Shown here in pieces: positions 1-15,688 of a stretch of 64,000 nucleotides of DNA. A program made the position numbers and the translations under genes. Position 1 is the first letter of the stretch, and every line of letters begins with the position of its first letter. Origin of the DNA: Escherichia coli O157:H7 str. 2011EL-2287 (GTDB lineage Bacteria > Pseudomonadota > Gammaproteobacteria > Enterobacterales > Enterobacteriaceae). Below the pieces are notes generated by a model. It made no database searches. It was not told the origin of the DNA and saw only the letters and a program-made list of their open reading frames with translations. The stretch lies in the NCBI GenBank assembly GCA_000614405.2, contig GCA_000614405.2_3612.1. One strand, 5' to 3'.

Positions 1-2
1 TG

Positions 3-1373
3 GACCAGAACAACAATATGATGGGTGTTGATCCTCGACAGGTGAGAAGGATTTTAATACCGCTTATGCCTAAAGATTGGGTAAGCAATAGCACAAACCC
101 AAGAACGGAAAATGTAGAGTGTGAGTTGCGCCTAGATCTGCTTCAGCCAGACACAGGCTGGAAAATGATGCAACTTAACAATATTCAGGTGAAAGAACAC
201 GACGTTGGGATCTGCACAGCATATGACGATATGTGGAACGTGTCTCCTTTAAGGGTGTTGAACAATATCAAGCGTCTGGGCTATACCGGAACCATAAACC
301 ACTATGTTGGTATGAGTCATTATTATGACTACACATGGTCAGGAACCCAATGGTCTATAAACAGAACAGGGGCGCTAAACGCTGCAGCTTATAAATGGCA
401 TGATGATTTTATGTACAATGCCAAACGACATAACTTCGACGTTATGCAGTCTGTAAGTTTTGAGCTTTACAGCGATGCCTGCCCGTTGGAATGGACCCAA
501 AGAGACTGGAATGATAACTACGCTAAAACAGGATATACACCTTGTAGCTACCTCCTGTCTCCAACCATTGAAGAGGGTATGAATTTCCTTACGGCAGTAT
601 TTAAGAATTTTGCATCAGCCGCTATGAGAAACAACCTGCCAGTGATTATGCAGGTTGGTGAACCGTGGTGGTGGTTCAATACCGATACTCGTAGACCTTG
701 TATTTATGATTACCCTACAAAACAGGCGTTTTATGATGAGACAGGTGAGTATGCATTAGATATTGGGACTATTGACGATCCTAAAACTGGCGGTGTTTAC
801 GACAAGTATGTAGCATTTTGTCGTGGTAAGCTTGGCGCTCGTATTGCGGCTATTTCAAAGGCAATAAAGGCACACGCTGCATCAGCTCAGATGACAGCTC
901 TGCTGTTTTTCCCAACCATTATGGAAACCGAGCTTACGCAAAAGCTGAACCTTGCTGACCAATATAAAAAAGAAGCAGGTGCTCTTGATTTCTTCTGCAC
1001 CGAGTGCTACGATTGGGTGATGCAGGGAGGTATTGAAAAGGCAAAAGAGTCTGTAAACATACCTATCGTTAAGCTAGGTTGGCAACCGTCTGAAATACAA
1101 TACCTTGCAGGGTTCGTTCCTAGTAAAGAGCTTGCTCCGGTATATGGATACGACCCAACTAGGAATTACCAAGAATTTTTATGGAGATGTATTTGCGGAA
1201 ACATGGCAACTATAGAGTATAGATACCCTGAGGTAAAACAGTATGTGTGGGCATACCCGCAAGTAATGTCTGACAGCATCACTGTTACCGCTAGAGATTC
1301 TACCGTGCTTCATATGGGGCAGGTTGCTCTGAAAGGGTATGTAGAAGATGTTGTCCCGCCAGACTTCTCATAA
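3..1373 (+). CDS. virion structural protein (tail/baseplate-associated), 5'-partial
   Basis: Reading frame is open to the window start; lies directly upstream of the tail-fibre genes; no catalytic motif recognised. Confidence 0.4.
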   Translation, partial: DQNNNMMGVDPRQVRRILIPLMPKDWVSNSTNPRTENVECELRLDLLQPDTGWKMMQLNNIQVKEHDVGICTAYDDMWNVSPLRVLNNIKRLGYTGTINHYVGMSHYYDYTWSGTQWSINRTGALNAAAYKWHDDFMYNAKRHNFDVMQSVSFELYSDACPLEWTQRDWNDNYAKTGYTPCSYLLSPTIEEGMNFLTAVFKNFASAAMRNNLPVIMQVGEPWWWFNTDTRRPCIYDYPTKQAFYDETGEYALDIGTIDDPKTGGVYDKYVAFCRGKLGARIAAISKAIKAHAASAQMTALLFFPTIMETELTQKLNLADQYKKEAGALDFFCTECYDWVMQGGIEKAKESVNIPIVKLGWQPSEIQYLAGFVPSKELAPVYGYDPTRNYQEFLWRCICGNMATIEYRYPEVKQYVWAYPQVMSDSITVTARDSTVLHMGQVALKGYVEDVVPPDFS

Positions 1374-1385
1374 TCAGGAGATAAA

Positions 1386-2426
1386 ATGTCAAAACCTAGT
1401 TTTCCATTAGAGATTTGGGCAGAGGAGGATCAGGTTCTGCCTAACACCCACAGACAGAACAGGCTACGCCCGATTGATGATTTGTGGAGAAAAGGTTGGG
1501 ATCTTGGTCAAAAGCCCTCATGTGAAGAACTTAACTATATTTTCAATATGCTCGGAACTTGGGCAAAATACATTGCTGACGAGCAGATCCCCGCTCAAGA
1601 AGGCCGTTATCTGGTACGTGATAATAACTTGAGTGATCTTTTGAACATCCCTGTTGCCCGTAGAAACCTTGGGATTATTACTAAGGAAGAGGCAGACGCC
1701 AGGTATGTAAAAGTTACAGGTGATACAATGACAGGCCCATTGGGTTTGCAGCGTATCAACTTTAAAGCTGCCGAGACAGATAAGGCTTGGATAGAGACAA
1801 CTATTGGCCCAGATAAGACAACTCTCGACTTTGGGTTAAGTGATAATACTGGGTCGTTTGATGATGGTGGTACATCTACGGTAGATGCGTTTCGTTGGAG
1901 ATTCCAGCCAACTCAGCCGGATATTAATCCAGAGTTCACTTTGATGTACCTTAACGCGATCACGGCTAACCGTGCGCTGTTGAAAGTGGTAGGCAATGTT
2001 GAAGTTGTCGATAACATGAGGTGCAATAACCTTACTATCAGCAATACAGCAACATTCACCAACTGTAATGTGGCTAGTCAGTTGACGACTGGGTCAGTGT
2101 ATGTTAATGGTGGTGCAAGTTGTGACAGTATGGTTGTAAGAAGTCAGCACTGTGTTGTCGGTAACAGAAATGTGGTGCGCTCTGTGAATGGAGTGACGGC
2201 TAACGGTAACGGTGATGTAACAATCACTATCCCGCAGACAGGTGTGCAAGACATCAGAATCGGTGCAAGACTTGTTGACGGCGTTTCTGAATCTCCAATT
2301 CGCAACGGCTACGTTGTCACAGGCTGGCATTTCGGTGACAAAAAAGAGATGCGTGGTTCAACCTACTGGGCAGGACCTTTACAAAAACTTGTAAATGGTC
2401 AATGGATCACTGTTAATTATGCATAG
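1386..2426 (+). CDS. tail fibre protein, paralog 1
   Basis: NLSDL..ARRNLG and GDTMTG tail-fibre motifs; C-terminus LQKLVNGQWITVNYA shared with ORF 3441-4484; AGGAGA RBS. Confidence 0.7.
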   Translation: MSKPSFPLEIWAEEDQVLPNTHRQNRLRPIDDLWRKGWDLGQKPSCEELNYIFNMLGTWAKYIADEQIPAQEGRYLVRDNNLSDLLNIPVARRNLGIITKEEADARYVKVTGDTMTGPLGLQRINFKAAETDKAWIETTIGPDKTTLDFGLSDNTGSFDDGGTSTVDAFRWRFQPTQPDINPEFTLMYLNAITANRALLKVVGNVEVVDNMRCNNLTISNTATFTNCNVASQLTTGSVYVNGGASCDSMVVRSQHCVVGNRNVVRSVNGVTANGNGDVTITIPQTGVQDIRIGARLVDGVSESPIRNGYVVTGWHFGDKKEMRGSTYWAGPLQKLVNGQWITVNYA

Positions 2427-2440
2427 ATCGGAGGACTAGC

Positions 2441-3025
2441 ATGAAAATACTTCAAGAGTTTAAACTTTACCAACCGGGATCTGGCGAATACCACTCCAAC
2501 AAGGAAACCAAGGAGCTGACCCCTCAAGAGGTTGAGGATTACACCGCATACACTGGGTATTTTTTACGTAATGATGATGGCGATTGGTATGTGCAGTCAC
2601 GAACATTACGACAAGAAAATCCGGGTTGTATCTTCCTACTTGTTGACGAGAAGGGAATTCTTAAGACATCTACAGAAGAACCTGATGCCTTATGGCCTGC
2701 TCCAGGTCTTCGTGTGGTTATCGCCAAAAAAGAAGAGGTACCAGAAAACATTATGCTTCACCACGACGCTTTGCGTTTAGTTGGTGATGAATTTGTCACA
2801 GATAATGAATTCTTTGTTCAACAGGCAGAGGGTGTCATAGAGACAGAACTTGCTTGGGCTACTGCTAGAATTGGTGCCTATCAAGACATGATTGACCTTG
2901 AATATGATCTTACTGATGACCAGAAACGTAACATCAGAGATTTGAAAATGTACAGGGTAAAACTTCTTGAAATAGATACATCTAAAGCCCCTGACATTTT
3001 CTTCCCGGAGCGACCTACCCTCTAA
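2441..3025 (+). CDS. tfa: tail fibre assembly chaperone (Tfa-like)
   Basis: C-terminal KMYRVKLLEIDTSKAPDIFFPERP matches the Tfa signature (YRVxLxxVDxSxAPDIxWPxxP); immediately downstream of a tail fibre gene. Confidence 0.75.
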   Translation: MKILQEFKLYQPGSGEYHSNKETKELTPQEVEDYTAYTGYFLRNDDGDWYVQSRTLRQENPGCIFLLVDEKGILKTSTEEPDALWPAPGLRVVIAKKEEVPENIMLHHDALRLVGDEFVTDNEFFVQQAEGVIETELAWATARIGAYQDMIDLEYDLTDDQKRNIRDLKMYRVKLLEIDTSKAPDIFFPERPTL

Positions 3026-3036
3026 GAGGAGGTGTT

Positions 3037-3351
3037 GTGGAGTTGGATTTGGCGGCATTGTACGGTATCTGCATGGGTACCGTTGTCCCGATCTGTGTAT
3101 GGGCTTTCAACCAGTGGCACACCAAATGGAAAGGCATTTCCAAGAGGTTGGATGAACTGGAGAAAGACCTCATCTTAGTGAAAAACAGTATGGTTACAAA
3201 AGATAAACTTGATTCCGTTATCGAGACCCGGTTAAGCAAGCTAGAGGCCGATATTAACGACCTTAAGCAGGATGTCAGGACAGATGTCTCCGGTATCCGA
3301 GCTGATGTACAAAAGATTTTGCACATGCTCGTAGAGCATAGTAAAAGGTAA
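3037..3351 (+). CDS. membrane-anchored coiled-coil protein
   Basis: N-terminal hydrophobic segment then charged heptad-like region; RBS GAGGAGG upstream. Confidence 0.4.
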   Translation: MELDLAALYGICMGTVVPICVWAFNQWHTKWKGISKRLDELEKDLILVKNSMVTKDKLDSVIETRLSKLEADINDLKQDVRTDVSGIRADVQKILHMLVEHSKR

Positions 3352-3440
3352 ACAAAGGTCAGAACGGAAAGGACTCCGTTCTTGCATTTTGTTCTCTAAA
3401 GTGTTAAAATAGTCCTAAGGAATTTTCTCAGGAGAACGCG

Positions 3441-4484
3441 ATGACTAAACCAGTTATCCCTCTTGATATTTGGGCCAATCAGGATGTTGTGCTTGAAAAT
3501 ACGGGAGAGTTGAATAAGTCTCAACCAAAAAAAGAAGAGAGATTGAAAGGTTGGGATATGACACAAAGAGTGGCATGTGAAGTTGTTAACTTTGAACTTC
3601 ACATGCTTTCTGCGTGGTTAAAGCATCTAACAGAAGATGTTGTCCCAGGATGGGATAATAGATTCTTAAGGGTCACTAATAATCTAGCAGACGTTCCAGA
3701 CAAAGCTGCTGCACGTCAAGTTCTCAATGTATACTCGCCTGAAGAAATGGACGATCTGTATGTTGACAAGTCTGGAGACATAATGACTCAGACTCAAACT
3801 TTAGGTCTTCAAAGAATCGAGTTTGCATCTGCGTCAACAGACAATGCGGCAATATATACCACCATAACTCCAGACAAGACGACGATGGATTTCTGGATTA
3901 TGGACAACATCGGTGGTGCTGACGGCACAGACCTTGATGATCCTTCTCACCAAATAGACGGGTTCCGTTGGAGATTTCAACCTTCTGGTGGGCAGCCTGT
4001 GTTTTCGGCTATGAAGCTCAATGCTATAACTGCCAACCGTGCAAGACTGGCCATCCAAGGAAATCTTGAATGCAACGATGCAAAAAGTTCCTCTGCAAAT
4101 GCCAATGCGGTCACGATACCAAGAGCCACTGTTAACGGACAACAATCCTGCGGAAGCGCTCAAATAGGTGGAAGAGTTGATTGTAACGATGAAACAGTCA
4201 GGGGTCAATATGCAACAGTTGGTGGAAGAAACGTGGTCCGCAGGGTAAATGGTAACGGCGCAGACAGTAGTGGTAACCTTACTATCCCTATGCCCAGCAG
4301 AGGGGTTGATGATGTAAGGATAGCAAACCGTTTCAAAACCACCTACAGAGAGTCAAGAGTCTACCCTGGACATGTGATGTGCTCTGGTAACTACGCTTAT
4401 AAACACCCTTATCAAGGTGATTACTGGACAGGTGCTATCCAAAAACTTGTAAATGGTCAATGGATCACTATATCTTATGCTTAA
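3441..4484 (+). CDS. tail fibre protein, paralog 2
   Basis: N-terminus and C-terminus (AIQKLVNGQWITISYA) parallel ORF 1386-2426; NNLADV..AARQVLN and GDIMTQ motifs; divergent central region. Confidence 0.7.
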   Translation: MTKPVIPLDIWANQDVVLENTGELNKSQPKKEERLKGWDMTQRVACEVVNFELHMLSAWLKHLTEDVVPGWDNRFLRVTNNLADVPDKAAARQVLNVYSPEEMDDLYVDKSGDIMTQTQTLGLQRIEFASASTDNAAIYTTITPDKTTMDFWIMDNIGGADGTDLDDPSHQIDGFRWRFQPSGGQPVFSAMKLNAITANRARLAIQGNLECNDAKSSSANANAVTIPRATVNGQQSCGSAQIGGRVDCNDETVRGQYATVGGRNVVRRVNGNGADSSGNLTIPMPSRGVDDVRIANRFKTTYRESRVYPGHVMCSGNYAYKHPYQGDYWTGAIQKLVNGQWITISYA

Positions 4485-4495
4485 AAAGAGGGTAA

Positions 4496-4762
4496 ATGAA
4501 ACTAACTCAGTTTTTATGGGGACTGGTTGCGGCATCTGATGACCCTACGAAAGTGTCCCAAACTAAGCTATGGTCGAACATAGGCATGGCGGTGATGACT
4601 GGGGTGTTTATTCATATGGGGTATAATGATACGCTTCCTGAATGGTATGCGTGGATATACGCGCCTTCAGTAGCTTGCCCCCAGCTTATTAGCAAATTCA
4701 TCTCGCTCCGGTGGGGTTGCCAGCACCCTGACCACGTTAAAAACGAAGAGCAAAAAGCTTAA
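4496..4762 (+). CDS. hypothetical small hydrophobic protein
   Basis: ORF with hydrophobic core, between tail fibre genes. Confidence 0.35.
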   Translation: MKLTQFLWGLVAASDDPTKVSQTKLWSNIGMAVMTGVFIHMGYNDTLPEWYAWIYAPSVACPQLISKFISLRWGCQHPDHVKNEEQKA

Positions 4763-4771
4763 GGAGAAATC

Positions 4772-6517
4772 ATGGCGCAAGACATGACAAGCTTTGAGCA
4801 GGCGGTAGATCAAGTAATTGTTGATTCTGAACGTTTGCACTTGGTTGTCAACGGTAACGCTGTGGATGAAGTTGTCGTAGAGGATGGGACCACCATCCCT
4901 ACGGTACGAAAAGCCATGCTTGACAACCTTTATTTTAAAACGCCACCGATCCCTTGGGCGTATGGTGCATCCACAACAGTTTTTAACCAGCTGTACGAGT
5001 TTAAAGGGGACACAGGCCCTCAGTGGTGGTACGCTCCCGCAGCATCAAAATCTAACCCGGTTAGAATGCCAGCAGATCCTTCACAATCTCCAAACTGGAG
5101 ATTATATACCGACTCTGCAGTAATGGCAAAATACTACGCAAAACTTAACAGCCCGAGGTTCGAAGGTGACCCACGAGTACCTACACCTCCAATGGACGAT
5201 AAGTCAGAGTCCATAGCAAACACAGAGTTTGTTGTTGACTATGTTGATAGCATATTTAAAGCCATGGAGGGGATGAAAGTTACTGTAGGGTCTTTGGTGG
5301 TAAAAGGTCTTACAGAACTCGCTAACACTATAGTTGGTGGCACCCTTACCTTACATGGACCTGTTAATGGGGCAGATTCTACTGCACGCTTTAGGAATCT
5401 AATCCTCACGGCAAATACTTCTACACTTACTTTTGCGTGGAGCGATCCTAAGCATGCAGACTGGAGAAGTACAGAGCTGCAACCTCATGAAGTGTCCACC
5501 CACAGGGTTATAGCTGACACTATAACTTCTGGGAAACCAGTGGCTAATAATAACGATGTGCATTTTGATGGTCTGGGTAATAACTTTTTTGACTACGTGT
5601 ACATTCGTGGTAATGCCATGAAGGCAGCAACCGAACCGACATTGCAGGTCGATGGGACCACCAGGGTTAAGAACCTTGAGGTGACAGGTACCGTTACAGG
5701 GATAACATACTCTGTCGATGGCACCATGATCTACCCTAGCTATATTGAAAGCACGGGTGATGCATTGATAAATGGCGATTTGGAGGTTGGCGGGTCTGTA
5801 GTTATTCGAGGTACAGCCTCTATCCAAAATATAGCTCTGAATACTCTAAGAGTCAATGAGCGTGCAACTTTTGAAGGAGAAGGGCTTACAGCCAATAAAG
5901 GTACAATTACCGAGCTAACCACCACCACTTTAACTGCAACAACTGCAAACTCTGAAAACTGCAACATTACCAGAAACTTGCAGGTAAATGGAGATGTTAG
6001 TTTAAACGCCGCAGGGACTGGCACCACCCACCTTCACAACCTTGAAATATCCGGCACAGTGACCGGGTGGCTGCCAGACTTCTCTAATGTCAACTTTGTC
6101 TGTAATGGCATTAACTCCAGTGGTAAGATAACCACCTCTCAAGAAATTGAGGCGGGTAAAACCATTACTGCCCCTACTTTCCACGCAGGAAAGGTAGATT
6201 TTGACTTAGAGGAGGTTGACGCGTCCAGTGGGACATGGACACCTAACGGGCAGGCCAGCATGTATGTTGTCCACTCGAAAGGGGATTTTACAATAGGACA
6301 GTGGCCTGGGACATCAGCGGAAGATAAACCTTATCCATTCACTGCAGTTATCTATGTCATTCAGGATGCTGTAGGTCACAACGTGACTTTGCACGATAAG
6401 TATGCTATCCTGTCGGCAACACCTGTTATTAACAACAAGGCTAACAGTGTTACCTTGCTGCAATTAACGTATTGTGGTGTTGGTGATATTGTAGACGTAG
6501 TAATTGCACAACGTTAA
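4772..6517 (+). CDS. beta-rich tail fibre / tail spike-like protein
   Basis: Repetitive Thr/Gly/Val-rich segments (VTGTVTG, TTTTLTATTAN) typical of fibre shafts; located in tail module. Confidence 0.5.
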   Translation: MAQDMTSFEQAVDQVIVDSERLHLVVNGNAVDEVVVEDGTTIPTVRKAMLDNLYFKTPPIPWAYGASTTVFNQLYEFKGDTGPQWWYAPAASKSNPVRMPADPSQSPNWRLYTDSAVMAKYYAKLNSPRFEGDPRVPTPPMDDKSESIANTEFVVDYVDSIFKAMEGMKVTVGSLVVKGLTELANTIVGGTLTLHGPVNGADSTARFRNLILTANTSTLTFAWSDPKHADWRSTELQPHEVSTHRVIADTITSGKPVANNNDVHFDGLGNNFFDYVYIRGNAMKAATEPTLQVDGTTRVKNLEVTGTVTGITYSVDGTMIYPSYIESTGDALINGDLEVGGSVVIRGTASIQNIALNTLRVNERATFEGEGLTANKGTITELTTTTLTATTANSENCNITRNLQVNGDVSLNAAGTGTTHLHNLEISGTVTGWLPDFSNVNFVCNGINSSGKITTSQEIEAGKTITAPTFHAGKVDFDLEEVDASSGTWTPNGQASMYVVHSKGDFTIGQWPGTSAEDKPYPFTAVIYVIQDAVGHNVTLHDKYAILSATPVINNKANSVTLLQLTYCGVGDIVDVVIAQR

Positions 6518-6565
6518 TATATCTAACCGCTCCTGACGGGGCGGTTTTCTTATCTGGAGAACACA

Positions 6566-9500
6566 ATGCTTCCAATCCCTTTGCTAAAACTTGGTCGTCA
6601 TTTCCTCGATAAGAGGGGTGGAATTAAGGAACTTGCTGTTCTGTCATACCCAATAGACAACAGTGATGGTACAAGCAACACAGTATCCTATGTAAATAGC
6701 TTAGCTATACTTTTTGATGATGGTCAGCTTAATATTACTGGCTATAATAGGTTCGGAGAGTGTCGGACTGGAGATCTTGATACAATAAACTATCCTAATG
6801 AGGCAGCTTGGAACGTAGACCATGTTTGGAGAGCTGACCGTGCATTTGTAATCCGCACATTCGATAATAAATTTTTCTATATTGGTTGCACAGCTGGTCT
6901 TATCGGATCGGAGGCAGCAGGTGGAAACGATGTTTGTGTCAGAGAGTGGACACCTTTGCCGGAACAGATCGTAACAGGGTTGCATTTGGACACCCATCCT
7001 GAGAGACTTGTTGAAGTAATGGGTGGCGTAAACAATACAGTGTGGGTAATTGCTGCACCAGAGGCTGATGGTATGCTTCACCTGTACGGCTCTGGCAATA
7101 ATACTTACGGCTCTCTTCATGTTGACAAAAGTCAACACGCTACTCCAGTTAAGATAGGTGAAACATCTGAAAGTCCAGAGACAGGTCCTTGGAAAAATCC
7201 AAGAATTAATTGTGAAGTTCATGACAACTCGGTTATTTTTGGTGGTCCTAACGGATTCTGGATTGCAGGTTATGATTTCTTAAGAAATAACAGCAAAAAC
7301 ACACTAGTTTATCCAGCCGAGCATGTGACTCTTGACCAGTTTAAAGGCATCCCGGTGGGCGAGACATGGAAAGGGTTCATGTGTGGACCTAATGGTGCAA
7401 TTATAGCCACAGAAAGGATGCACAAACCTGATGACCAACAGCTTGTTAATGTGTTTTATGGTCAGGATGTTTGGGGTGACGACACGTGGAGAAGCCTTAA
7501 CATCACCTATACCCATGAAGTAATTATGGCTCGCGGGTACGGGACTAGTGGAATTTTCTTCAATAATGGTACAAAACAGTACCGTGGTTTCTCCAGAAAC
7601 CTGTGTAACGATATTGGTGCTCAATCTGCTAATAATAGTCCTAGGGCCAATTTTATTCATTACAGAGCGCTGGCAACAGCTAAGTTTGTTGAACAGACAG
7701 AGCCAGTAAGCTGGACAGAAAGCGTTTATTTTCAAGGGATCCACAGGGAAGGTTTCTTAGGCACATTCTGTGTGGTAAATGGAAAGCTTTGGTGGTCAGG
7801 AATACCACGTGGTAGTTTTTCAGGATCTAATAACCTCTTTGGCGGCAGACTTAACAGCCAAGGGTTCACAGAGATTCCGGAGAATTGGTATAAAAATGTC
7901 CCGGTAGATAGCTGGGGTATCGAAGACATCTTTGATGTCAATGGTGTGAGCAATGTTAGCAACATTTACATCGGAGATACTGTCAAGATGAAATTGAAAC
8001 CTCAGCCGGAGGGTGCTACGTTCATTATTGACAAGATTGAGTTGGTAAATGCTGCAGGCACTGTTGTTACAGATGCAAACTATCAGTTCTCCACTAACTG
8101 GAACCATGGTGGTGCTAACGAAGTTGTGGTCACCCAGTATAACCGTAACATCAACAGACGTGGTTTGTATTCTATCAAGATCACCTACCATGACAAGCAT
8201 GGCACTGGAAGAACCTATACGACAAGGACTTTGAACTGGAACACTATAGTTCCTGCGTATCCGTCCAACGGCAAGTGGCATACCGTTGGTAGAAACAAGC
8301 AGTTCCATGTTAACGATACTGTATACTTTGGGCTGAATGGGACCCAGCCTGCAGTAGAAGGGGATACATCGTATATGGTCAGACTCCACAGAATGGATGC
8401 TGGATCAGTCACTTATGATGTGACCCAAGAGATCTACGATCAAAGACGCGCCACGTATGACAATATTGTGAAAACACAAGCCTTGTGGGAGTTCAATCCT
8501 AATGGCAAGGGTGGTAAAATGTTGCAGGTTAATGAGCAGAACGGAACGTCGTTGACTGTTCACGAACACCCAGACCCTTGGCCTGATCCTGGAAAACCTC
8601 ACCCGGGAGCTCGTACACTGAAAATTGTCAGCCATGATGCAGGATATTTCGGAATACGCTGGGAAGCTACAGTAAGATATGTCGACGGGACAACAAACAA
8701 CATAGGGATTACACTTGGCGGCACTAGTGAAGATAACTCGCTGAAAATTGCCTACACGCCCAGAGGTATCTCTATTGATAATATGGATGTTGTTCGCAAT
8801 GGCTACGGCGATGTGAATGTCAAAGTTACTCTTGGCGAACATCTTGGTGGGGAAAGGATCATCATGTATGCCTTTGATCATGATCCACGCACCAATGGAA
8901 CTTATGCAAATCAGGCATGGAGTTACCTGATAAATGCACCTGAGCCGAATACTAAAGAGTTCTACTATGGTATGAAGCGAGATGTGTGCAAGAAAACAGG
9001 AACACATGACTGGATTGCTATCTGCGTTAAAGATGAGCGCACAGCTTGGGATGAGCCTGTTAACAGATGGTTCATAGGTATTCCTACCAGAAGTGATAAG
9101 TATGTCGCAGAATATATTGTATGCATGGGCGGTACCAACCTAAACATGTGTTGGAACGAAGATGTAAACAAATACTCTGATTATGACTATATGAGGGATT
9201 ACTCTTGTAATTTGTGGTTTAACCAAACTACAGGTTACCCTCCAAGACAGGCAAGGGTAAATCCTGCAATCTTTACAGATACTCAGGTTTTCTTGACAAA
9301 ACAGGCAAACGAGGTTCAGACCTTCAAGAATAACTATGACCCTAACAAGTGGTTCTATAATTGTTACGGGGCATACTTTTGGGGGCCTGCTGAACTGCCT
9401 GACAGCGGTTCTTGCTTCGAGGCTGCAACCTACGGCAGCGACTATATCATGGGACAGGTCAAGAAGTACAAGATGATCCCAGGGCCTGAAACTTTAGGTA

Positions 9501-12202
9501 ACGCTGTTGACCCATACATAAATTTCGCAGCTTTGCATGCGAATATGGATGGTGCAAGGTATCCGTTCGACGTTCCAGTTGCCAATGGGTACAAACGTGT
9601 TGTGATGATCATTAAGTGCGACCTGATAGGTAAACAAGTTCTTGCAGAAAACGGGACATCCACACATCCTTTTGAGATCGCTCTGCACTATCAGTTTGCT
9701 GACTCACCTTTTGCAGGGGATAAGAGAATATCTGATACAGACGCACAGCGTTGTAAGAAAGTATTGTTGGGTGCAGGTTGGTGGTGGTATGAGTTTGATT
9801 TAACAGATAAGTTCACAGATGATACCAAGACTCTCACAGGTATCCGTCTGGATCTTGGTGAGAACATGCACAAAGCTGTTTGTGATGGCACCTACGGTGA
9901 TCCTACAGTATACTTGAAGTATGTCTCTCTTGAGCATCCAGAGGATGCCGTAATCGGTCCTAAACTGAAATTATTCGGCGCATGGATTGCCAAGGATAGA
10001 GTAGGTATGGGTAAGAAAGTGAGAGGATTCCTGATAGATGCAGGAACAGAGGACATGCTGGTTAATGCAGTGTGGCCTACGCTAGAAGGAACTGCCTACA
10101 ACAATGCAGCCAGGTCTATAAATTGGTTCAACATTCACAGAGCTATGTGGACTACCAACTGCTACTTGTGGAGAGAGCTCAACGATCAGGCCTTTGGCTT
10201 TAGTAACGGCAGAAGGATGGCGATCATCTGCTGGACAACACTGCAAAGATGTTATGACCATGACTACGAGATTGGCGGTAGAGCATGGAAAGATATCCGA
10301 GATAGAATCATATACAATTTTGCAGATGATAATGGTGGCGGGGCATATAACTTTGGCACAAGCCGACTTATCCACTTGAACGGATCTTCAGCCTACAAGA
10401 AAGAAGGTTACTCTGGATCCATGATCGAGTGGGGTCTGGTGAAAGATGCTCGCGTATTGATGGGCCAGCAACTTGCTGCCGCAATAGGTCCCAGCGCAGT
10501 GCAGTCGGTTAAACCAGCGTGGTTTGATATTCCATTGTGGTCACCCGGAACACCGGGAACTGCTGCAATCAACCCTACCACTGGGGATCTAGAAATCTCC
10601 TGGGAGGACTTGAAGCAGGTCGGCGGTTGGGACAAAACAGGGTATCAGGTTCAGTGGTGGAGAGCTGATGGATCTTTAGCTGCTGATGAGTTTGTTAAGG
10701 ACAATTTCTACACTATGTCCTCTGCAAAAGCACAGCAATTATTTGGTCAGGCCACTCCGTCAACAATCACCATGTCTATGTGCTGTAAAGACAACAGGAC
10801 TGGAGCTTTGGGGCCAAGGGTTGCTAAGGTTTTCTCAGGTATTAAATGGAATCTTCCTGTTCAAAGTGTTTCATGGAAGCAAATAGGTGATAACAAGCTG
10901 CTGGTTACCCCTGCCTGTCAGTTCAACGCAACTCTTAACGTTAATCCTGCTGTTGCGGCAAACTCAGCTAAAGCTTCTGACTTCTCTGTGTCTAACACCG
11001 CTATGGCAGATGTGAGGAAGATTGACACACTGAACGCCAGAATTACCTGTAAAAACACTTATGGCACATTCCAGATCATCAACAACTTCACAGATGCTGA
11101 TTCTAAGGTAGTGAGGACAGCAAGCCAGACTTTGAGTTTAGGAACTCTGGCCTATGCGGCCCTGATCACTGAACAGTCGGCAACACTCCAAGGAGGTGGT
11201 GTAGGCAAGTCCATTACAACACCTGTGTGGAAGCCAAATGAGTGGGTTGTGTTTGATTTGACTGTGGACTTCTCCAGCGATAATAACTGGACATGGGTAA
11301 GGAATTGTTTGTCACAGTTGATGGGCGGTCCAAGCTCCGTTAGTGATAGTCACGACTCTACTGACCCGAGTGTGTTCCAGGTAGGTAAAACTCACCCAGA
11401 GACTGGAGAAACGTTGCCTGACAGGAAGTATGCTTTGGTTTGCATCTCTTACGGAAAAGCAGATGTCACCTTCTCAGGGACACACACTTATAACGGAACT
11501 TACAACTTCTCAAGGAAGTATAGTCTCAAAGCAGGGAACATTATAGACGAGGTTGGTGTGCTGTATAATCCGGGCAACGGCATAGGGATTGTTGGTGGTA
11601 AACTGCAGATGCAGGAACCTTCTATTACCCCTTCCAACGTAGCCGGGATTAGAAAGACTTGGGAAAGTAGTAATACCAACATTGCAACAGTGGATGCCAC
11701 CACAGGACTGGTAACATTTAAAGCTACTGGGAATGTCACCATAAAGTTTGTAGTTACTGATGATGCAGGGCGCAAAACGTCTTCAACATCTTTTACTGTC
11801 AAACAGATGGCACCACAGTGGAGAATGTGGATAGGTACAGCAACAAACGGGGCATACCCTAATCCGGCAGGTACTTCTGGTATGAAGACTTTCTCTACAA
11901 GCAAACCGATGGAGTACGGCAGCGGTCCTAAGGTAGGGCAGATGGTGTACTTTGGTGCGTATATTCCTGAAATTATAGGGCTTCCGAGAAGTCAGCTTCA
12001 GTTGCTGTTTGGGGCTGGTGTTGACGATCTTGCCACTTTCGGGTATAGCGACAACATCGAGGCTGCAAGGAGTTCAGGATGGGTAGGGTTCAGAATGGAG
12101 CCTGGAAAGGAAGGCAGGATTCTAGGGACAGCCTCTATAGGTGTTATGTTCCCTGGTGACCAGCAGTATCGTCTAGAAGCCTACGCAACCTTTTCTCGTT
12201 AA
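6566..12202 (+). CDS. giant virion/tail-associated protein with Ig-like (Big_2-type) domain
   Basis: 1878-aa ORF; Ig-like segment (TWESSNTNIATVDATTGLVTFKATGNVTIKFVVTDDAG); N-terminal Gly-rich repeats; last gene of late operon. Confidence 0.55.
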   Translation: MLPIPLLKLGRHFLDKRGGIKELAVLSYPIDNSDGTSNTVSYVNSLAILFDDGQLNITGYNRFGECRTGDLDTINYPNEAAWNVDHVWRADRAFVIRTFDNKFFYIGCTAGLIGSEAAGGNDVCVREWTPLPEQIVTGLHLDTHPERLVEVMGGVNNTVWVIAAPEADGMLHLYGSGNNTYGSLHVDKSQHATPVKIGETSESPETGPWKNPRINCEVHDNSVIFGGPNGFWIAGYDFLRNNSKNTLVYPAEHVTLDQFKGIPVGETWKGFMCGPNGAIIATERMHKPDDQQLVNVFYGQDVWGDDTWRSLNITYTHEVIMARGYGTSGIFFNNGTKQYRGFSRNLCNDIGAQSANNSPRANFIHYRALATAKFVEQTEPVSWTESVYFQGIHREGFLGTFCVVNGKLWWSGIPRGSFSGSNNLFGGRLNSQGFTEIPENWYKNVPVDSWGIEDIFDVNGVSNVSNIYIGDTVKMKLKPQPEGATFIIDKIELVNAAGTVVTDANYQFSTNWNHGGANEVVVTQYNRNINRRGLYSIKITYHDKHGTGRTYTTRTLNWNTIVPAYPSNGKWHTVGRNKQFHVNDTVYFGLNGTQPAVEGDTSYMVRLHRMDAGSVTYDVTQEIYDQRRATYDNIVKTQALWEFNPNGKGGKMLQVNEQNGTSLTVHEHPDPWPDPGKPHPGARTLKIVSHDAGYFGIRWEATVRYVDGTTNNIGITLGGTSEDNSLKIAYTPRGISIDNMDVVRNGYGDVNVKVTLGEHLGGERIIMYAFDHDPRTNGTYANQAWSYLINAPEPNTKEFYYGMKRDVCKKTGTHDWIAICVKDERTAWDEPVNRWFIGIPTRSDKYVAEYIVCMGGTNLNMCWNEDVNKYSDYDYMRDYSCNLWFNQTTGYPPRQARVNPAIFTDTQVFLTKQANEVQTFKNNYDPNKWFYNCYGAYFWGPAELPDSGSCFEAATYGSDYIMGQVKKYKMIPGPETLGNAVDPYINFAALHANMDGARYPFDVPVANGYKRVVMIIKCDLIGKQVLAENGTSTHPFEIALHYQFADSPFAGDKRISDTDAQRCKKVLLGAGWWWYEFDLTDKFTDDTKTLTGIRLDLGENMHKAVCDGTYGDPTVYLKYVSLEHPEDAVIGPKLKLFGAWIAKDRVGMGKKVRGFLIDAGTEDMLVNAVWPTLEGTAYNNAARSINWFNIHRAMWTTNCYLWRELNDQAFGFSNGRRMAIICWTTLQRCYDHDYEIGGRAWKDIRDRIIYNFADDNGGGAYNFGTSRLIHLNGSSAYKKEGYSGSMIEWGLVKDARVLMGQQLAAAIGPSAVQSVKPAWFDIPLWSPGTPGTAAINPTTGDLEISWEDLKQVGGWDKTGYQVQWWRADGSLAADEFVKDNFYTMSSAKAQQLFGQATPSTITMSMCCKDNRTGALGPRVAKVFSGIKWNLPVQSVSWKQIGDNKLLVTPACQFNATLNVNPAVAANSAKASDFSVSNTAMADVRKIDTLNARITCKNTYGTFQIINNFTDADSKVVRTASQTLSLGTLAYAALITEQSATLQGGGVGKSITTPVWKPNEWVVFDLTVDFSSDNNWTWVRNCLSQLMGGPSSVSDSHDSTDPSVFQVGKTHPETGETLPDRKYALVCISYGKADVTFSGTHTYNGTYNFSRKYSLKAGNIIDEVGVLYNPGNGIGIVGGKLQMQEPSITPSNVAGIRKTWESSNTNIATVDATTGLVTFKATGNVTIKFVVTDDAGRKTSSTSFTVKQMAPQWRMWIGTATNGAYPNPAGTSGMKTFSTSKPMEYGSGPKVGQMVYFGAYIPEIIGLPRSQLQLLFGAGVDDLATFGYSDNIEAARSSGWVGFRMEPGKEGRILGTASIGVMFPGDQQYRLEAYATFSR

Positions 12203-12218
12203 CAAGAGGGGGTAAATA

Positions 12219-12250
12219 AAAAGGGGCCAAACGGCCCCTTTCTTTTTATA
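12219..12250. terminator. bidirectional rho-independent terminator
   Basis: Hairpin AAGGGGCC-AAAC-GGCCCCTT flanked by T-run on + strand and A-run (T-run on - strand); sits between convergent clusters. Confidence 0.6.
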
Positions 12251-12251
12251 G

Positions 12252-12452
12252 TTAGTAATACTCCCAACATGCACCATCTTCAGACGGCTTGACGCGCTTA
12301 CCTTTATGGTCAACATAGGTATAGCCACAACCTTCACAAATAACAGGTGCTGCATAGCCTTCCTTCCACTGATCCTCAGTGATCAGACCTTCCAAATCTT
12401 TGCAGTCAAAGCCAAACAACTCTTCAGAGCAATCTTTACAAAAATCAGCCAT
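12252..12452 (-). CDS. zinc-ribbon protein
   Basis: CxxC ... CxxC cysteine pairs (CKDC, CEGC) in a 66-aa ORF. Confidence 0.45.
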   Translation of the reverse strand: MADFCKDCSEELFGFDCKDLEGLITEDQWKEGYAAPVICEGCGYTYVDHKGKRVKPSEDGACWEYY

Positions 12453-12455
12453 TTC

Positions 12456-12863
12456 TCAGTCCTCGCATTTAACAAATTTTTCTACAGATCCACCAAGCAC
12501 AGCTTGTTGTTTGATGGCACTTTCTTCATCATAGTGAATAGACTTATGTTCCGTACCTCCAAACTTACCTGTGTGGAAGGTGTGCACCCAAATCTCTTTA
12601 GGAAGGGATTTATTCTCTTCTTCCACCAACTCCCACATTCCCCATAAGTGATCTGTGATATCTCTGATGAAATATCCCTCGCCTAGGTTTGTATTCACAC
12701 TATAAGCTGATTCGTGATCTCCACAAATATAACGGAAGGCTGTGTACTCTTTACCTGGTGTGAAGTGGGTATCCATTAGTATAGCTGTTAAAGAATAAGG
12801 GTCTCGAAAGCCCAAGAACTTTAGTTTAACAATTTCGACATTCACACTTGCAAGATTCTCCAT
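12456..12863 (-). CDS. hypothetical protein
   Basis: ORF tightly packed with neighbours; no motif recognised. Confidence 0.4.
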   Translation of the reverse strand: MENLASVNVEIVKLKFLGFRDPYSLTAILMDTHFTPGKEYTAFRYICGDHESAYSVNTNLGEGYFIRDITDHLWGMWELVEEENKSLPKEIWVHTFHTGKFGGTEHKSIHYDEESAIKQQAVLGGSVEKFVKCED

Positions 12864-13026
12864 GGCAGTCTCCTCTGTTTGGTTGGTGAGATAATCCTAT
12901 ACAAATCTGTTGTTGGTGTCAAGATTAATTTTAAGAGATCTGAGAGGGTATTTTATTCAGGAAGGCAATCGCACAGGGTGGGGCAATTTATGAAGGCACA
13001 GGCCTCGTTTGAGGCCTTAAATTATA

Positions 13027-13407
13027 TTATGACACTTTGACATAGCGCTCTGACAAAGCTGGGAAGCCAAAAGTAGTGCCTATACTACCATAGGCTATCC
13101 ACCATTGAAGTTCATCGTGACACCATTTTCCGATCAGGAAGGTGCTGGGATAGCGGGTCAGTATTTTGGCATAAGCTTTAGGATCTGCATCTTCTGGGAT
13201 AATGATGCTTGGAACATCTTTGTTATGACCACAGCAGCAGTTTAGCGTTTTCAATCCTGCCGCCCATAGACTCATGATAGGCTTAGCCATGCACTTATCA
13301 AGGCACACACGTTTTTTGCCGTCACGGAGCTTTTTAGGCACATCAACGATAACATTTTGATGCTTGGCACCTTTCACTTTCCAATTATAGGATTTACACT
13401 TGCACAT
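13027..13407 (-). CDS. cysteine-rich hypothetical protein
   Basis: Multiple Cys clusters (CKCK, CLDKC, NCCCGHN). Confidence 0.4.
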   Translation of the reverse strand: MCKCKSYNWKVKGAKHQNVIVDVPKKLRDGKKRVCLDKCMAKPIMSLWAAGLKTLNCCCGHNKDVPSIIIPEDADPKAYAKILTRYPSTFLIGKWCHDELQWWIAYGSIGTTFGFPALSERYVKVS

Positions 13408-13434
13408 TTAATCAGTCTCCATCTAGAAAGCAAT

Positions 13435-13608
13435 ACTTTACTTAAAATCTTTGTCACCTATTACGATTGCACGAATCCACTCATTGTGATGTTCAATGGC
13501 GGTAAGGTGTAACATAATGCAGTGATTGTCATTACCAAACACGGTGCGGTAAGCTTTAGCAGCACCATGATATAACTTCCACATCAGGTAATGATATCTT
13601 AGCCTCAT
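13435..13608 (-). CDS. small hypothetical protein (57 aa)
   Basis: Below ORF-track threshold; start codon overlaps stop of upstream gene (ATGA) suggesting translational coupling. Confidence 0.3.
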
Positions 13609-14084
13609 GGCTCTTTCTCCGGTTCAGGATCTGGGTAATCTTCAATAATAAAAGGCCATCCATTACGCTTTGCTTCAGACTTATACTTAATCTCCTTCAT
13701 TGCAAACTCTAATTGATTCTTAGCCGGAATACATGCCGGAGAATCATCAATCCAGATATCTGGGTAGATATCAAACTGAGCCAGATAGGCTGCCTTCTGA
13801 ACACCTCCAGTATAAAACACACCAACATCAAGCTCCTTGCGCCAATACTCAATGTCTACATTGTCTTGAGTAATGAATCGGAAAGTCACAAGGTAGACTG
13901 CCCACCCCTCCTTCTTCAGATCCCTGATCAGGCGGGAGAAGATGAAAGGGCTCGCATTAAACGTTCCATCAAAGTCAATGGCAATGATGTGCGTGCCGTG
14001 GCGAGTCTCATATGGATTGCTTGTGGTAAGATTGCTGTAGTTAAAAGGAACTTCTTCCCCGCAGTAGCTGTAGTCCATATTCAC
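13605..14084 (-). CDS. HAD-superfamily phosphatase
   Basis: HAD motif I IAIDFDGT and distal IWIDD motif. Confidence 0.6.
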   Translation of the reverse strand: MNMDYSYCGEEVPFNYSNLTTSNPYETRHGTHIIAIDFDGTFNASPFIFSRLIRDLKKEGWAVYLVTFRFITQDNVDIEYWRKELDVGVFYTGGVQKAAYLAQFDIYPDIWIDDSPACIPAKNQLEFAMKEIKYKSEAKRNGWPFIIEDYPDPEPEKEP

Positions 14085-14356
14085 ACCTTCTCGTTGATAA
14101 ATTTACGGGCGGTTTGGTGAGTTGTTTCTGCTGTCTTCAGAATGATATTAATCTTATTGTCAAGATCATTCATCTCTGCAGTTAATTCAGGAATCTCTCC
14201 GGCATGCATAGTGAAATCATACATAGACATGCCCAGAATCTCATTGATTCGGCGGTTGCATTCTGCAGCACGCTGGTTCATTTTCCAAGCTAACACCAGA
14301 GCCTCTTGCGTAGCCTCCAGTGCAAAGTCTAATACGTCAGCTTCTTCTTTCGTCAT
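14081..14356 (-). CDS. hypothetical protein
   Basis: Overlapping stop/start with neighbours in leftward operon. Confidence 0.4.
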   Translation of the reverse strand: MTKEEADVLDFALEATQEALVLAWKMNQRAAECNRRINEILGMSMYDFTMHAGEIPELTAEMNDLDNKINIILKTAETTHQTARKFINEKV

Positions 14357-14411
14357 CTCAGTCTCTCTTGTTGTATTGTTGGTAGGTGCATGAACACCTT
14401 ATATCTCACTT

Positions 14412-14978
14412 TTATTCAAACTGCAATAGCAAGTCCACCACCGCACTAGGCCTGTCAACAAATTCCCCAGGCCCACATGCCCATAGAGGGTATCCATCAA
14501 CATACCGCCATATCCAACCTGCAGTGTGAAGCTCAAGCAGGGCAGTGCCGTCCTTACTGTCAACCACCCTTTCCCACAGTGTTGGGCAGCGAAGCTTGAG
14601 AATCGGGTCCCCGCCCTTATACCCGTCCATGTAGATACCCATTGCAAAGTTCAGCATCATCTTTTTGTGCACTGATCTCTTACTGAGAGTGCTCATCACT
14701 TCCTCTTTGTGAATGTTTGTAAGCTTCTCCTTGGCTACCCGCAGATTGTTGCAACCATTGTTCAGCAGATCTTCCAGACACTTGATCCGAAGGTCGTGAA
14801 TGTCTTTGTCGTGTACCGTTGGCACAGGGTCGTAGCGGTATAGCACTGTTGATACAAGGTTGCTCGGGTGTGGGTCTGACAGCAACCCATAACCCCAATA
14901 CTCTTCTGTATCTGAAAGGACAAGACACCCAATGTCTCTGTCAAGCTTTCCTGTGTTGTAAGCCACATTGACCGCCAT
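14412..14978 (-). CDS. hypothetical protein
   Basis: 188-aa ORF in operon context. Confidence 0.4.
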   Translation of the reverse strand: MAVNVAYNTGKLDRDIGCLVLSDTEEYWGYGLLSDPHPSNLVSTVLYRYDPVPTVHDKDIHDLRIKCLEDLLNNGCNNLRVAKEKLTNIHKEEVMSTLSKRSVHKKMMLNFAMGIYMDGYKGGDPILKLRCPTLWERVVDSKDGTALLELHTAGWIWRYVDGYPLWACGPGEFVDRPSAVVDLLLQFE

Positions 14979-14980
14979 GA

Positions 14981-15226
14981 CTATAGCTCCACTAGCAAAG
15001 TGCTTTCAAAGTGCCGTTCATGCAAACCGTTGTAAGGGACCACTTCTACAACGCCATCACGGACATATGGGGCCATCATGGTGGTATAATCTCCAAACGG
15101 GTTGGTATTGTCACTAACCACAACCACCTTCTGCCCTTCCTTGGCAGAGTGCCAAATAGATCTGCACTTCATCAGGTGTTCGAGAGCTCCAGGTAAAATT
15201 TTGTTACGTTCTTTACGGGTCTTCAT
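14981..15226 (-). CDS. hypothetical protein
   Basis: ORF in operon context. Confidence 0.35.
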   Translation of the reverse strand: MKTRKERNKILPGALEHLMKCRSIWHSAKEGQKVVVVSDNTNPFGDYTTMMAPYVRDGVVEVVPYNGLHERHFESTLLVEL

Positions 15227-15672
15227 AACAGATATAGCTCCTTATGAAAGTGGTCTTTTAATTTCTCACTGAGAAACTTCTTGATACCTTCCTCTAAAGT
15301 GTTTTCGATGTAGTCCAGCTTAACTGCTTCGATGGACATATCATAGATCGCCAGCTCTAAGCTGTCAAGTCCCATCATAGCATGAACCATAAGATTTTCA
15401 TCTTCAGATACATTCAGGGGACTTCCTATAACATCTGTAGGTAGGATAGTTTCCCAATTATTCTGGGGGGTAGTTCTCCCACCATCCACTTTACGGCGCA
15501 GTTCGAAGGTGTTCTTAGTGTAGAACACTTCATAAGAAACGATACGACTATCGCTCTCATAATAAACGAAGTTCAGGTAGGAGCCTAGCCGCAGTCGGCA
15601 AACTTCTACCCCAAACCATTGTTTCTTATAAGAATTCAGGCTAATGCTGTCGCATTCACGCTTGCTCAACAC
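15223..15672 (-). CDS. hypothetical protein
   Basis: ORF with overlapping stop/start. Confidence 0.4.
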   Translation of the reverse strand: MLSKRECDSISLNSYKKQWFGVEVCRLRLGSYLNFVYYESDSRIVSYEVFYTKNTFELRRKVDGGRTTPQNNWETILPTDVIGSPLNVSEDENLMVHAMMGLDSLELAIYDMSIEAVKLDYIENTLEEGIKKFLSEKLKDHFHKELYLL

Positions 15673-15688
15673 GGCTATCTCCTTTTTG

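Follow-up and report, generated by a model that had tools for sequence, protein, structure and literature searches.

Two short tail fibres beside a single Tfa chaperone in a Vequintavirus genome, with gp30 as the derived, faster-evolving copy

The combination of two short-tail-fibre genes with one chaperone gene is real and has been known in rV5-like phages since 2013 and 2021; the closest described system is the 'short tail fiber' locus of rV5 (Escherichia phage V5, NC_011041) and of the BASEL Vequintavirus phages. For rV5, Kropinski et al. (2013) reported an identity of 42.3% between gp30 and gp33, used mass spectrometry to detect gp30, gp32, and gp33 in the virion, and proposed that the two fibres serve two LPS chemotypes (PMC3606486). 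Maffei et al. (2021) described the two short-tail-fibre paralogues and a chaperone as homologous to Mu GpS and GpU (PMC8594841). The stretch of DNA analyzed here (64,000 nucleotides, referred to as the window) represents a Vequintavirus (rV5-like myophage) genome, with a DNA identity of 98.5–99.7% to many GenBank records (e.g., rV5, FFH2, and BASEL phages), in which the genes considered here are annotated as 'short tail fiber protein (x2)' and 'tail fiber chaperone'.

Outside the genus, close relatives are phi92 gp147 ('fiber III') and the phiTE STF (PDB 9CUY/9MJN), whose N-terminal wedge-docking domain and C-terminal tip are homologous to those of the window fibres. In both phages, the Tfa gene is located immediately downstream of the fibre gene and is followed by a gp31-like gene, as in the window; in phi92, gp147 precedes the Tfa homologue gp148, and cryo-EM places six trimers on the wedge protein gp145. 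However, phi92 and phiTE carry only one fibre copy. Their fibres are known as six trimers on the baseplate wedge; for rV5, mass spectrometry places both fibre proteins in the virion (PMC3606486). The phiTE STF also exceeds the window fibres in length (554 aa, including a coiled-coil shaft), flagella have been proposed as its target, and each wedge protomer of phiTE offers a single wedge-1 site.

In Mu and P2, each tip variant normally comes with its own Tfa. The Mu system (GpS/GpS' with GpU/GpU', i.e., TfaMu; PDB 5YVQ and 8JU3) has a tip domain homologous to that of the window fibres, including the terminal QK.(V/I)NG.W strand, and its chaperone belongs to the Caudo_TAP family, like gp32. The receptor- and Tfa-binding tip of GpS comprises the last ~65 residues, and the Tfa stays on the mature fibre (PMC9608196), consistent with the presence of gp32 in rV5 virions (PMC3606486); the target of GpS is glucose of the LPS core (PMC8594841). 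By DNA inversion, Mu switches between two alternative tips, so that one is expressed at a time, and has a separate Tfa for each, whereas the window has two complete fibre genes that are fixed and both expressed, with a single Tfa; the N-terminal halves of the Mu and window fibres dock in unrelated ways. T4 gp12, which depends on gp57A and not on a Tfa, represents a functional analogy, being a baseplate fibre whose terminal receptor is the LPS core. HHpred matches to 1PDI (T4 gp12) were reported by Kropinski et al. (2013; PMC3606486); these were not reproduced in our PDB searches, where no T4 gp12 chain was found at E up to 1 with gp33, gp30, or a profile of 30 family members as query.

The window contains orthologues of rV5 gp33, gp32, gp31, gp30, and gp29 in identical order (Table 1). 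The gp33 and gp30 orthologues each differ from rV5 by 2 aa (99.4% identity each) and the gp32 orthologue is 100% identical; we see no material difference, and the window represents a further isolate of the genus. The arrangement reported in the initial annotation is thus correct in outline. What is new here is that gp30 is the derived copy, evolves faster, and has had its anchor motif remodelled, together with the slot that this copy occupies, a late-promoter-like motif in front of it, and a 30-nt tract shared by the 3′ ends of the two fibre genes.

Table 1. Features of the short-tail-fibre locus, with positions in the window
Feature	Position	Strand	Basis or remark
Short tail fibre 1, rV5 gp33 orthologue, 346 aa	1386..2426	+	PHROG 4465 'tail fiber protein', E 1e-171
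Fibre 1 N-terminal wedge-docking domain, aa 1–~108	1386..1709	+	Match to phiTE STF
Fibre 1 Mu GpS-like tip, aa 286–346	2241..2423	+	Match to 5YVQ_A; shaft between domain and tip
30-nt tract encoding QKLVNGQWIT, fibre 1 3′ end	2382..2411	+	Identical to 4440–4469
Tail fibre assembly protein/chaperone (Tfa), rV5 gp32 orthologue, 194 aa	2441..3025	+	Pfam PF02413 Caudo_TAP; PHROG 136
104-aa protein, rV5 gp31 orthologue, between Tfa and fibre 2	3037..3351	+	PHROG 5345, E 1e-48
Terminator-like hairpin, weak T tract, in 89-nt gap before fibre 2	3361..3382	+	Sequence
Late-promoter-like motif TGTTAAAATA upstream of fibre 2	3402..3411	+	Same as predicted rV5 promoter P030
Short tail fibre 2, rV5 gp30 orthologue, 347 aa	3441..4484	+	PHROG 4465, E 4e-166
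30-nt tract, fibre 2 3′ end	4440..4469	+	Identical to 2382–2411
88-aa membrane protein, rV5 gp29 orthologue, next after fibre 2	4496..4762	+	PHROG 1322, E 1e-32

Both fibre ORFs are present where the initial annotation had placed them, and pairwise alignment identifies them as true, full-length paralogues that align end to end with 43% identity (E = 3e-94); each covers positions 1–342 of the 342 positions of PHROG 4465 (E = 1.2e-171 for gp33 and 4.1e-166 for gp30). The near-identical C-terminal strings that had been quoted are exact. On the other hand, a pattern of shared termini with a divergent centre does not describe this pair. Identity in 20-residue windows peaks at aa 121–160 (0.60–0.65), at aa 261–280 (0.65), and over the last 16 residues (0.75), and is lowest (0.20–0.35) at aa 61–100, 221–260, and 301–340; the middle (aa 121–220) is among the better conserved parts, while the N-terminal 110 aa show an identity of 38% and the tips (aa 286–330) an identity of 33%, with a dN of about 0.8. 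Between the two genes, the next longest exact match after the 30-nt tract at the 3′ ends is 13 nt; 11 of the 12 conserved codons in this tract region also have the third base in common (binomial P about 3e-4), and the synonymous difference pS is 0.24 over the last 16 codons versus ~0.9 elsewhere. The encoded motif QKLVNGxW is found family-wide, including the phiTE STF and Mu GpS, and therefore is not special to the gp33/gp30 pair.

In PDB sequence searches, gp33 matched the phiTE STF (9CUY_c) with residues 1–108 (E = 1.4e-19) and Mu GpS (5YVQ_A) with its C-terminus (E = 1.7e-6). Residues 1–83 of gp30 also matched 9CUY_c (E = 1.3e-9); a single-sequence PDB search with gp30 gave no match to Mu GpS, although gp30 aligns within the family at the tip and retains the invariant residues Q334, G339, and W341. 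A profile of 30 family members matched 9CUY_c at both the N-terminus and the tip (E = 1e-37) as well as 5YVQ_A (E = 4e-13; tip 284–353 to 438–503), and residues 3–92 of the phiTE STF are homologous to the N-terminal wedge-docking domain of gp33 and gp30. The central region, which the initial annotation had considered likely to bind the receptor, is unlikely to do so, as in Mu GpS and the phiTE fibre, both homologous to this family, the tip that binds receptor and Tfa is formed by the last ~65 residues (PMC9608196). An AlphaFold2 monomer model of gp33 (30-sequence alignment; mean pLDDT 61.7, pTM 0.30) was too poor to use, which is to be expected when the protein is an intertwined trimer, and when run against the PDB with Foldseek it gave no match at E ≤ 0.001.

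Only the first fibre gene is followed by a Tfa gene, as had been claimed, and gp32 is the sole Tfa that could be detected. This protein matches PF02413 (Caudo_TAP) with 45.7 bits (cut-off 22.1; E = 9e-12; residues 121–192) and PHROG 136 over its full length (E = 2e-36), and is 30.7% identical to phi92 gp148; a PDB search with the phage Tfa alone returned nothing meaningful. A tblastn search of 221 phage records located a single Tfa position in every genome, and a local Tfa HMM run against all six-frame ORFs of the window and of 24.6 kb of rV5 gave a single match (1e-79; next best 0.004); neither search detected a second Tfa. An insertion in the Tfa N-domain (ELTPQEVEDY) was seen only in Tfas from two-fibre lineages. 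Downstream of gp30 is the gene for the 88-aa membrane protein instead of a Tfa gene; this gp29 orthologue is 37% identical to phi92 gp144 and 52% identical to Av-05 gp104. The membrane-anchored coiled-coil protein that had been said to follow the second fibre is the gp31 orthologue, which precedes it. It presents one N-terminal hydrophobic segment (Kyte–Doolittle maximum at residues 5–23), with the remainder helical and coiled-coil-like, and its domain matches are weak and limited to coiled-coil families; a homologue is found directly 3′ of the Tfa gene in Av-05, FENT2, phi92 (gp149), and L007, a metagenomic contig representing a diverged lineage. In the gap before gp30, the terminator-like hairpin is absent from the terminator list of Kropinski et al. 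(2013), while the sequence of the promoter-like motif is that of the late promoter P030 in their Table S4C (PMC3606486). Matches to the late-promoter motif occur twice in the window (0.42 expected), and a sigma-70 promoter scan of the region gave nothing above shuffled expectation.

Both fibre genes are found in all of the ~116 Vequintavirus records. The gp30 clade is monophyletic in 98–100% of bootstraps. A tree of the N-terminal 110 residues groups gp33 with the single-copy fibres to the exclusion of gp30 (97% bootstrap), while the shaft (residues 111–285) groups gp30 with gp33 (91%); these domain-wise trees, which rely on phi92 as outgroup, are the informative ones, as whole-protein neighbor joining places the duplication ambiguously (35% versus 65% of bootstraps). 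gp33 is nearer than gp30 to the single-copy fibres (47.6% to Av-05, 52% to FENT2), and fibres of phAPEC8-like and Rosemountvirus phages carry its tip type as well (~60%), while the gp30 tip type (diverged at aa ~288–331) was found only in Vequintavirus. Both genes are under strong purifying selection, with dN/dS values against phage FV3 of 0.020 for gp33 and 0.059 for gp30; amino-acid differences within the genus (window versus FV3, rV5, and MaxBurger) show no clustering in the tips. gp33 is the conserved copy of ancestral type, and gp30 is the derived one.

The N-terminal anchor that the initial annotation had described as shared is not simply common to the two fibres. gp30 deviates at nine of 91 family-conserved positions, and seven of these nine are located in aa 1–51: P19, R28, I30, W34, G41, K43, and Y51 are replaced in the gp30 clade and the PIDDLW motif is gone, whereas the gp33 clade retains them. 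The invariant N-terminal residues M1, P4, P7, W11, A12, L18, N25, P29, G37, D39, E47, N50, and W59 are kept in gp30. The gp30 gene occupies the position where single-fibre relatives have a gene for a 157-aa membrane protein, of which no homologue was found in the window; this gene was considered as a possible fibre remnant and rejected, as it encodes a polytopic membrane protein (PHROG 7451) with no similarity to gp30 (E = 2.4). The L007 contig shows the same two-fibre/one-Tfa layout (STF1, 74% identical to gp33, followed by Tfa, the 104-aa gene, and STF2), which fits a shared chaperone. The last 60 aa of its two fibres are ~90% identical although their synonymous sites have diverged (third-base identity 0.42–0.47; dS from 1.6 to saturated), suggesting that selection at the protein level keeps one tip type beside one Tfa. 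The duplication is thus old and stable.

Homology, gene order, the single Tfa, selection, and domain-wise divergence as observed here, together with the virion presence and baseplate position reported for relatives in the literature, make it likely that this locus encodes a Vequintavirus short-tail-fibre module in which two trimeric baseplate fibres share a single Mu GpU-type Tfa and gp30 is an old derived duplicate. gp33 and gp30 would be fibres of the phiTE-STF/phi92-gp147 kind, each consisting of an N-terminal domain predicted to plug into the wedge of the baseplate, a shaft, and a tip of ~65 residues whose homologue in Mu GpS binds the LPS core. gp32 most likely folds and trimerises both fibres through the C-terminal tip, where the two copies have retained the same putative last strand, QKLVNGQWIT, and probably remains on the finished fibres. 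gp30 would have arisen by an old duplication within the lineage, have taken the slot of the 157-aa membrane-protein gene, be transcribed from its own predicted late promoter with the downstream lateral-fibre genes, and have evolved faster chiefly in anchor and tip. The initial annotation had named a fibre copy that is not expressed or not incorporated into virions as evidence against its proposal; since gp30, gp32, and gp33 have all been reported in rV5 virions (PMC3606486), neither copy is left out. Against the module stand the divergence of the gp30 tip and its failure to match Mu GpS as a single sequence, which imply that gp30 could need another folding factor or none, the usual pairing of every tip variant with a Tfa of its own in Mu and P2, and the single wedge-1 site per protomer in phiTE, which makes the location of a second fibre type a difficulty.

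Dual receptor specificity, as suggested by the initial annotation, is unproven: the tips differ in sequence, but in published RB-TnSeq screens 18 Vequintavirus and eight single-fibre Justusliebigvirus phages all came out with GlcI of the LPS outer core as terminal receptor. As two-fibre and one-fibre phages do not differ in this respect, K-12 gives no sign of a second specificity. A tentative alternative, in line with these screens, is that both fibres bind GlcI and that the duplication provides dosage, avidity, or robustness (e.g., 12 fibres instead of six); the BASEL Vequintavirinae all fail on waaC and waaG mutants and neither paralogue shows allelic variation (Maffei et al. 2021; PMC8594841), and the ~90% identical tips of L007 are likewise consistent with one receptor. 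However, the low identity and high dN of the tip loops in the window and the confinement of the gp30 tip type to Vequintavirus, set beside the wider sharing of the gp33 type, argue against this alternative, and K-12 screens are blind to a receptor used only on other core types.

With comparable reserve, the remodelled anchor may be taken to suggest that gp30 sits off the canonical wedge site and docks either elsewhere on the baseplate or on the network of lateral fibres whose genes are co-transcribed with it. The loss of the seven anchor residues and PIDDLW from the gp30 clade, the separation of gp30 from all other fibres in the N-terminal tree, the promoter-like motif heading gp30-gp29-gp28-gp27, and the single wedge-1 site per protomer in phiTE are consistent with such a site. 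However, the gp30 N-terminus still matches phiTE STF residues 1–83 and keeps the 13 invariant positions, phi92 gp147 deviates in the same motif although it is wedge-seated, and the wedge genes are of equal length in one-fibre and two-fibre phages. A more speculative proposal is that the duplication split the jobs: gp30 would have gained an anchor type of its own and dock off the canonical wedge-1 site, giving two sets of short fibres, its tip would be free to evolve toward a second ligand (LPS core or another surface structure), and one virion-retained Tfa would serve both fibres by recognition of the QKLVNGQWIT strand alone, with help from the ELTPQEVEDY insertion.

It is rather improbable that gp30 folds without gp32, by means of another factor (e.g., gp31, cf. 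T4 gp57A) or host chaperones, which would render the sharing of one Tfa only apparent. The gp30 tip has diverged past single-sequence detection of Mu GpS, and in all relatives examined a gp31 homologue accompanies the genes for fibre and Tfa; however, single-fibre phages have gp31 just as well, so that it does not belong to the second fibre in particular, two diverged lineages have conserved the last 16 residues in both fibre copies, and the searches of the 221 records and of the window and rV5 found no second Tfa-like ORF. Heterotrimers of gp33 and gp30, forming one fibre type from two gene products, would agree with the equal length, the collinearity throughout, the common last strand, and the conserved blocks at aa 121–160 and 261–280, but are very improbable given the modest overall identity, lower still in the intertwined N-terminal joint, the separate promoter-like elements, the diverged tips, the clearly homotrimeric single-copy relatives, and the absence of a precedent among the homologous structures retrieved.

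While the basic observation is textbook for the genus, the residual value of this locus lies in the function of the second fibre copy. rV5-like phages rank among the E. coli phages recovered most often and feature in cocktails for therapy and biocontrol, and their terminal adsorption depends on the short fibres; host-range prediction and fibre engineering would gain from establishing whether there are two specificities, whether there are two baseplate sites, and whether one Tfa matures two tips. If the proposed split of jobs is true, this module would represent a natural case in which one Tfa accepts two different tips, and would provide a rule for engineering fibre tips without a chaperone swap.

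Window positions 1-6600 matched 118 phage records (111 with at least 80% query coverage, at 90-99.7% identity), almost all of which were Vequintavirus (rV5-like) coliphages (e.g., rV5, FFH2, FV3, and the BASEL isolates); gene assignments, under rV5 gene numbers, were read from the annotated matching records (see the table below). Over the same region, approximately 16-21 unannotated GenBank records (MG0656xx) titled "Campylobacter phage" matched E. coli rV5-like phages at 99-100% identity; their host label, Campylobacter jejuni, looks doubtful. The initial annotation described two paralogous tail fibres served by a single chaperone, and both ORFs (gp33 and gp30) were found as it gave them, with C-terminal peptides that are exact. 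Each belongs to PHROG 4465 ("tail fiber protein") over its full length, and the two align from first to last residue (43% identity, E 3e-94), far above chance. The call of gp32 as the chaperone (Tfa) was supported by a Caudo_TAP match over the Pfam threshold and by a PHROG 136 match; tblastn found exactly one place per genome in 221 genomes, and a local HMM trained on five Tfas, run against 655 ORFs from six-frame translation of the window and the neighbouring rV5 tail region, had this ORF as its only match.

Coordinates of features at the short-tail-fibre locus and at the corresponding loci of relatives
Feature	Locus	Coordinates	Description
gp34, C-terminal part	window	18-1373	lateral fibre
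gp33	window	1386-2426	short tail fibre
gp32	window	2441-3025	tail fibre chaperone (Tfa)
gp31	window	3037-3351	104 aa, one TMD
gp30	window	3441-4484	short tail fibre
gp29	window	4496-4762	88-aa membrane protein
gp28	window	4772-6517	lateral fibre
gp27	window	6566-12202	lateral fibre; 1878 aa
identity tract	window	2382-2411 = 4440-4469	gp33 and gp30 3' ends
predicted late promoter P030	window	3388-3424	sequence as in Table S4C of PMC3606486
hairpin	window	6525-6546	t028 of the rV5 paper
gp31-type gene	L003 (Av-05)	6638-6952	
gp31-type gene	L004 (FENT2)	6746-7060	
gp31-type gene	L006 (phi92)	5547-5888	
gp31-type gene	L007	1795-2109	
157-aa membrane gene	L003 (Av-05)	6949-7422	PHROG 7451
157-aa membrane gene	L004 (FENT2)	7057-7530	PHROG 7451
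Tfa	L007	1171-1785	

Both this observation and its interpretation as dual receptor specificity are already in the literature. Kropinski et al. (2013, PMC3606486) described gp30 and gp33 as 42.3% identical and short-tail-fibre-like, detected gp30, gp32, and gp33 among the virion proteins, and suggested recognition of two LPS chemotypes as possible. Maffei et al. (2021, PMC8594841) reported two paralogous short tail fibres with one chaperone in Vequintavirinae sensu stricto, described phi92-like phages as having a single homologous locus, with Mu GpS/GpU as the ultimate homologues, and found no allelic variation in either paralogue.

The proposed layout of conserved ends around a variable, receptor-binding centre did not hold. 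The identity profile of gp33 and gp30 is a mosaic: conservation peaks at aa 121-160, at aa 261-280, and in the last 16 residues, is poorest at aa 61-100, 221-260, and 301-340, and amounts to only 38% identity over the N-terminal 110 residues. A 30-member family profile matched the phiTE short tail fibre (STF) of the baseplate (9CUY; E 1e-37, over N-terminal 1-77 and tip) and Mu GpS in complex with TfaMu (5YVQ; E 4e-13, positions 284-353 versus 438-503). The joint by which the phiTE fibre binds the wedge-1 protein is made of residues 3-92 (one wedge-1 per wedge protomer). In phi92, gp147, encoded directly 5' of the Tfa homologue gp148, is "fiber III" by cryo-EM, with six trimers on wedge protein gp145. 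These matches make the N-terminus the anchor to the baseplate, the centre a shaft, and the last ~65 residues a Mu-type tip, where Tfa and receptor act according to North et al. (2019) as summarised in PMC9608196. T4 gp12 was not matched in any search with these fibres.

The two-copy state was limited to Vequintavirus (two places in every one of ~116 records), while one copy was found in Avunavirus, Seunavirus, Justusliebigvirus (phi92), and relatives infecting Klebsiella, Cronobacter, and Salmonella. The single-copy fibres of Av-05 and FENT2 are nearer gp33 (47.6% and 52%) than gp30 (37.5% and 45.7%). In these two phages the fibre gene is followed by Tfa, a gp31-like gene, a gene for a 157-aa polytopic membrane protein, and then gp29-like and gp28-like genes; in Vequintavirus, gp30 occupies the slot of the 157-aa gene, of which no homologue was present in the window. 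The 157-aa gene has no Pfam match and, between the gp31-like and gp29-like membrane proteins, completes a three-gene membrane cassette within the tail-fibre module. A diverged metagenomic contig (L007) also carries two fibres and one Tfa; its first fibre is 74% identical to gp33, and bootstrap support of 98-100% puts its second with gp30, which dates the duplication to before the split between this lineage and Vequintavirus. Domain-wise trees conflicted informatively: a shaft tree (aa 111-285) placed gp30 and gp33 together (91%), and an anchor tree (aa 1-110) placed gp33 with all single-copy fibres and left gp30 out (97%). Of 91 residues conserved across the family, nine are replaced in the gp30 clade, seven of them among its first 51 positions (the PIDDLW motif included), and two in the gp33 clade. 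Together with lower identity to the L007 orthologue (45%, versus 74% for copy 1) and higher dN/dS inside the genus (0.059 versus 0.020), these replacements show that gp30 is the fast-evolving copy, still clearly constrained.

The motif QK.(V/I)NG.W is invariant throughout the family and present in phiTE STF and Mu GpS; its conservation is therefore a family property. The 3' ends of gp33 and gp30 also share a 30-nt exact match (next longest, 13 nt), and synonymous difference is 0.24 over the last 16 codons versus ~0.9 elsewhere, indicating either constraint at the nucleotide level or a short, fairly recent gene-conversion tract. Over their last 60 residues the two L007 fibres agree at ~90% identity with largely diverged synonymous sites; protein-level selection appears to hold both tips alike in that one-Tfa lineage. 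The tip loops (aa 286-330) of the window lineage have diverged to 33% identity; the gp33 tip type is shared (~60%) with phAPEC8-like and Rosemountvirus fibres, and the gp30 type is not. An insertion containing ELTPQEVEDY, in the fibre-binding N-terminal domain (~aa 15-45 of gp32), is common to gp32 and the L007 Tfa and absent from the aligned Tfas of single-fibre Av-05, FENT2, and phi92. As the two two-fibre lineages are sisters, it represents a single evolutionary event, and its correlation with two client fibres is only suggestive.

The membrane-anchored coiled-coil protein that had been assigned to the 3' side of the second fibre is gp31, which sits 5' of gp30; the gene 3' of gp30 encodes a different membrane protein, gp29. 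Members of the gp31 family (PHROG 5345; 104-113 aa, one N-terminal TMD, coiled-coil-like body) lie directly 3' of Tfa in all relatives examined, one-fibre or two-fibre, and this tight linkage suggests a possible role in fibre assembly, as for T4 gp57A, a small coiled-coil chaperone, or in lysis. The phi92 member, gp149, is annotated as "lipoprotein". A strong terminator-like hairpin (9 bp, 6 GC, then a T run) separates gp28 from gp27, so gp30-gp29-gp28 may form a separate short late transcription unit. The C-terminal 451 aa of gp34 match (PF23845, E 2.7e-80) the TIM barrel of the "non-contractile tail sheath protein" gp65 of N4, which the literature ties to recognition of NGR/ECA polysaccharide, common ground of Vequintavirus, phi92-like phages, and N4. 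The sign of the GC skew flips in window 12001-20000 and 60001-64000, consistent with strand switches in the rV5 gene map (minus-strand genes beyond gp27), and the whole 64-kb window contains no tRNA genes.

The best-supported model for gp33 and gp30 is two homotrimeric short fibres, both matured by one Mu-type Tfa, which would act at the tip's conserved end and stay in the virion. Copy 1 would bind GlcI in the LPS outer core as its ancestor did, and copy 2 would be derived, its anchor and tip both altered. Copy 2 may or may not add a second specificity: RB-TnSeq on K-12 gave identical receptors (NGR polysaccharide, then GlcI) for 18 Vequintavirus and 8 single-fibre Justusliebigvirus phages, and the two fibres could instead be redundant, with the same receptor. 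Alternatively, gp30, with its divergent anchor, could dock at a different site, or gp33 and gp30, which align throughout, could form heterotrimers. That gp30 folds independently of Tfa is a further rival. The initial finding is real and its gist right, yet the phage genus is well studied and the feature was already known from it; without changing that category, this analysis adds the derived status of gp30 with its remodelled anchor, the membrane gene whose place gp30 has taken, the tract of 3' identity, and the two-fibre/one-Tfa layout conserved in a diverged lineage.
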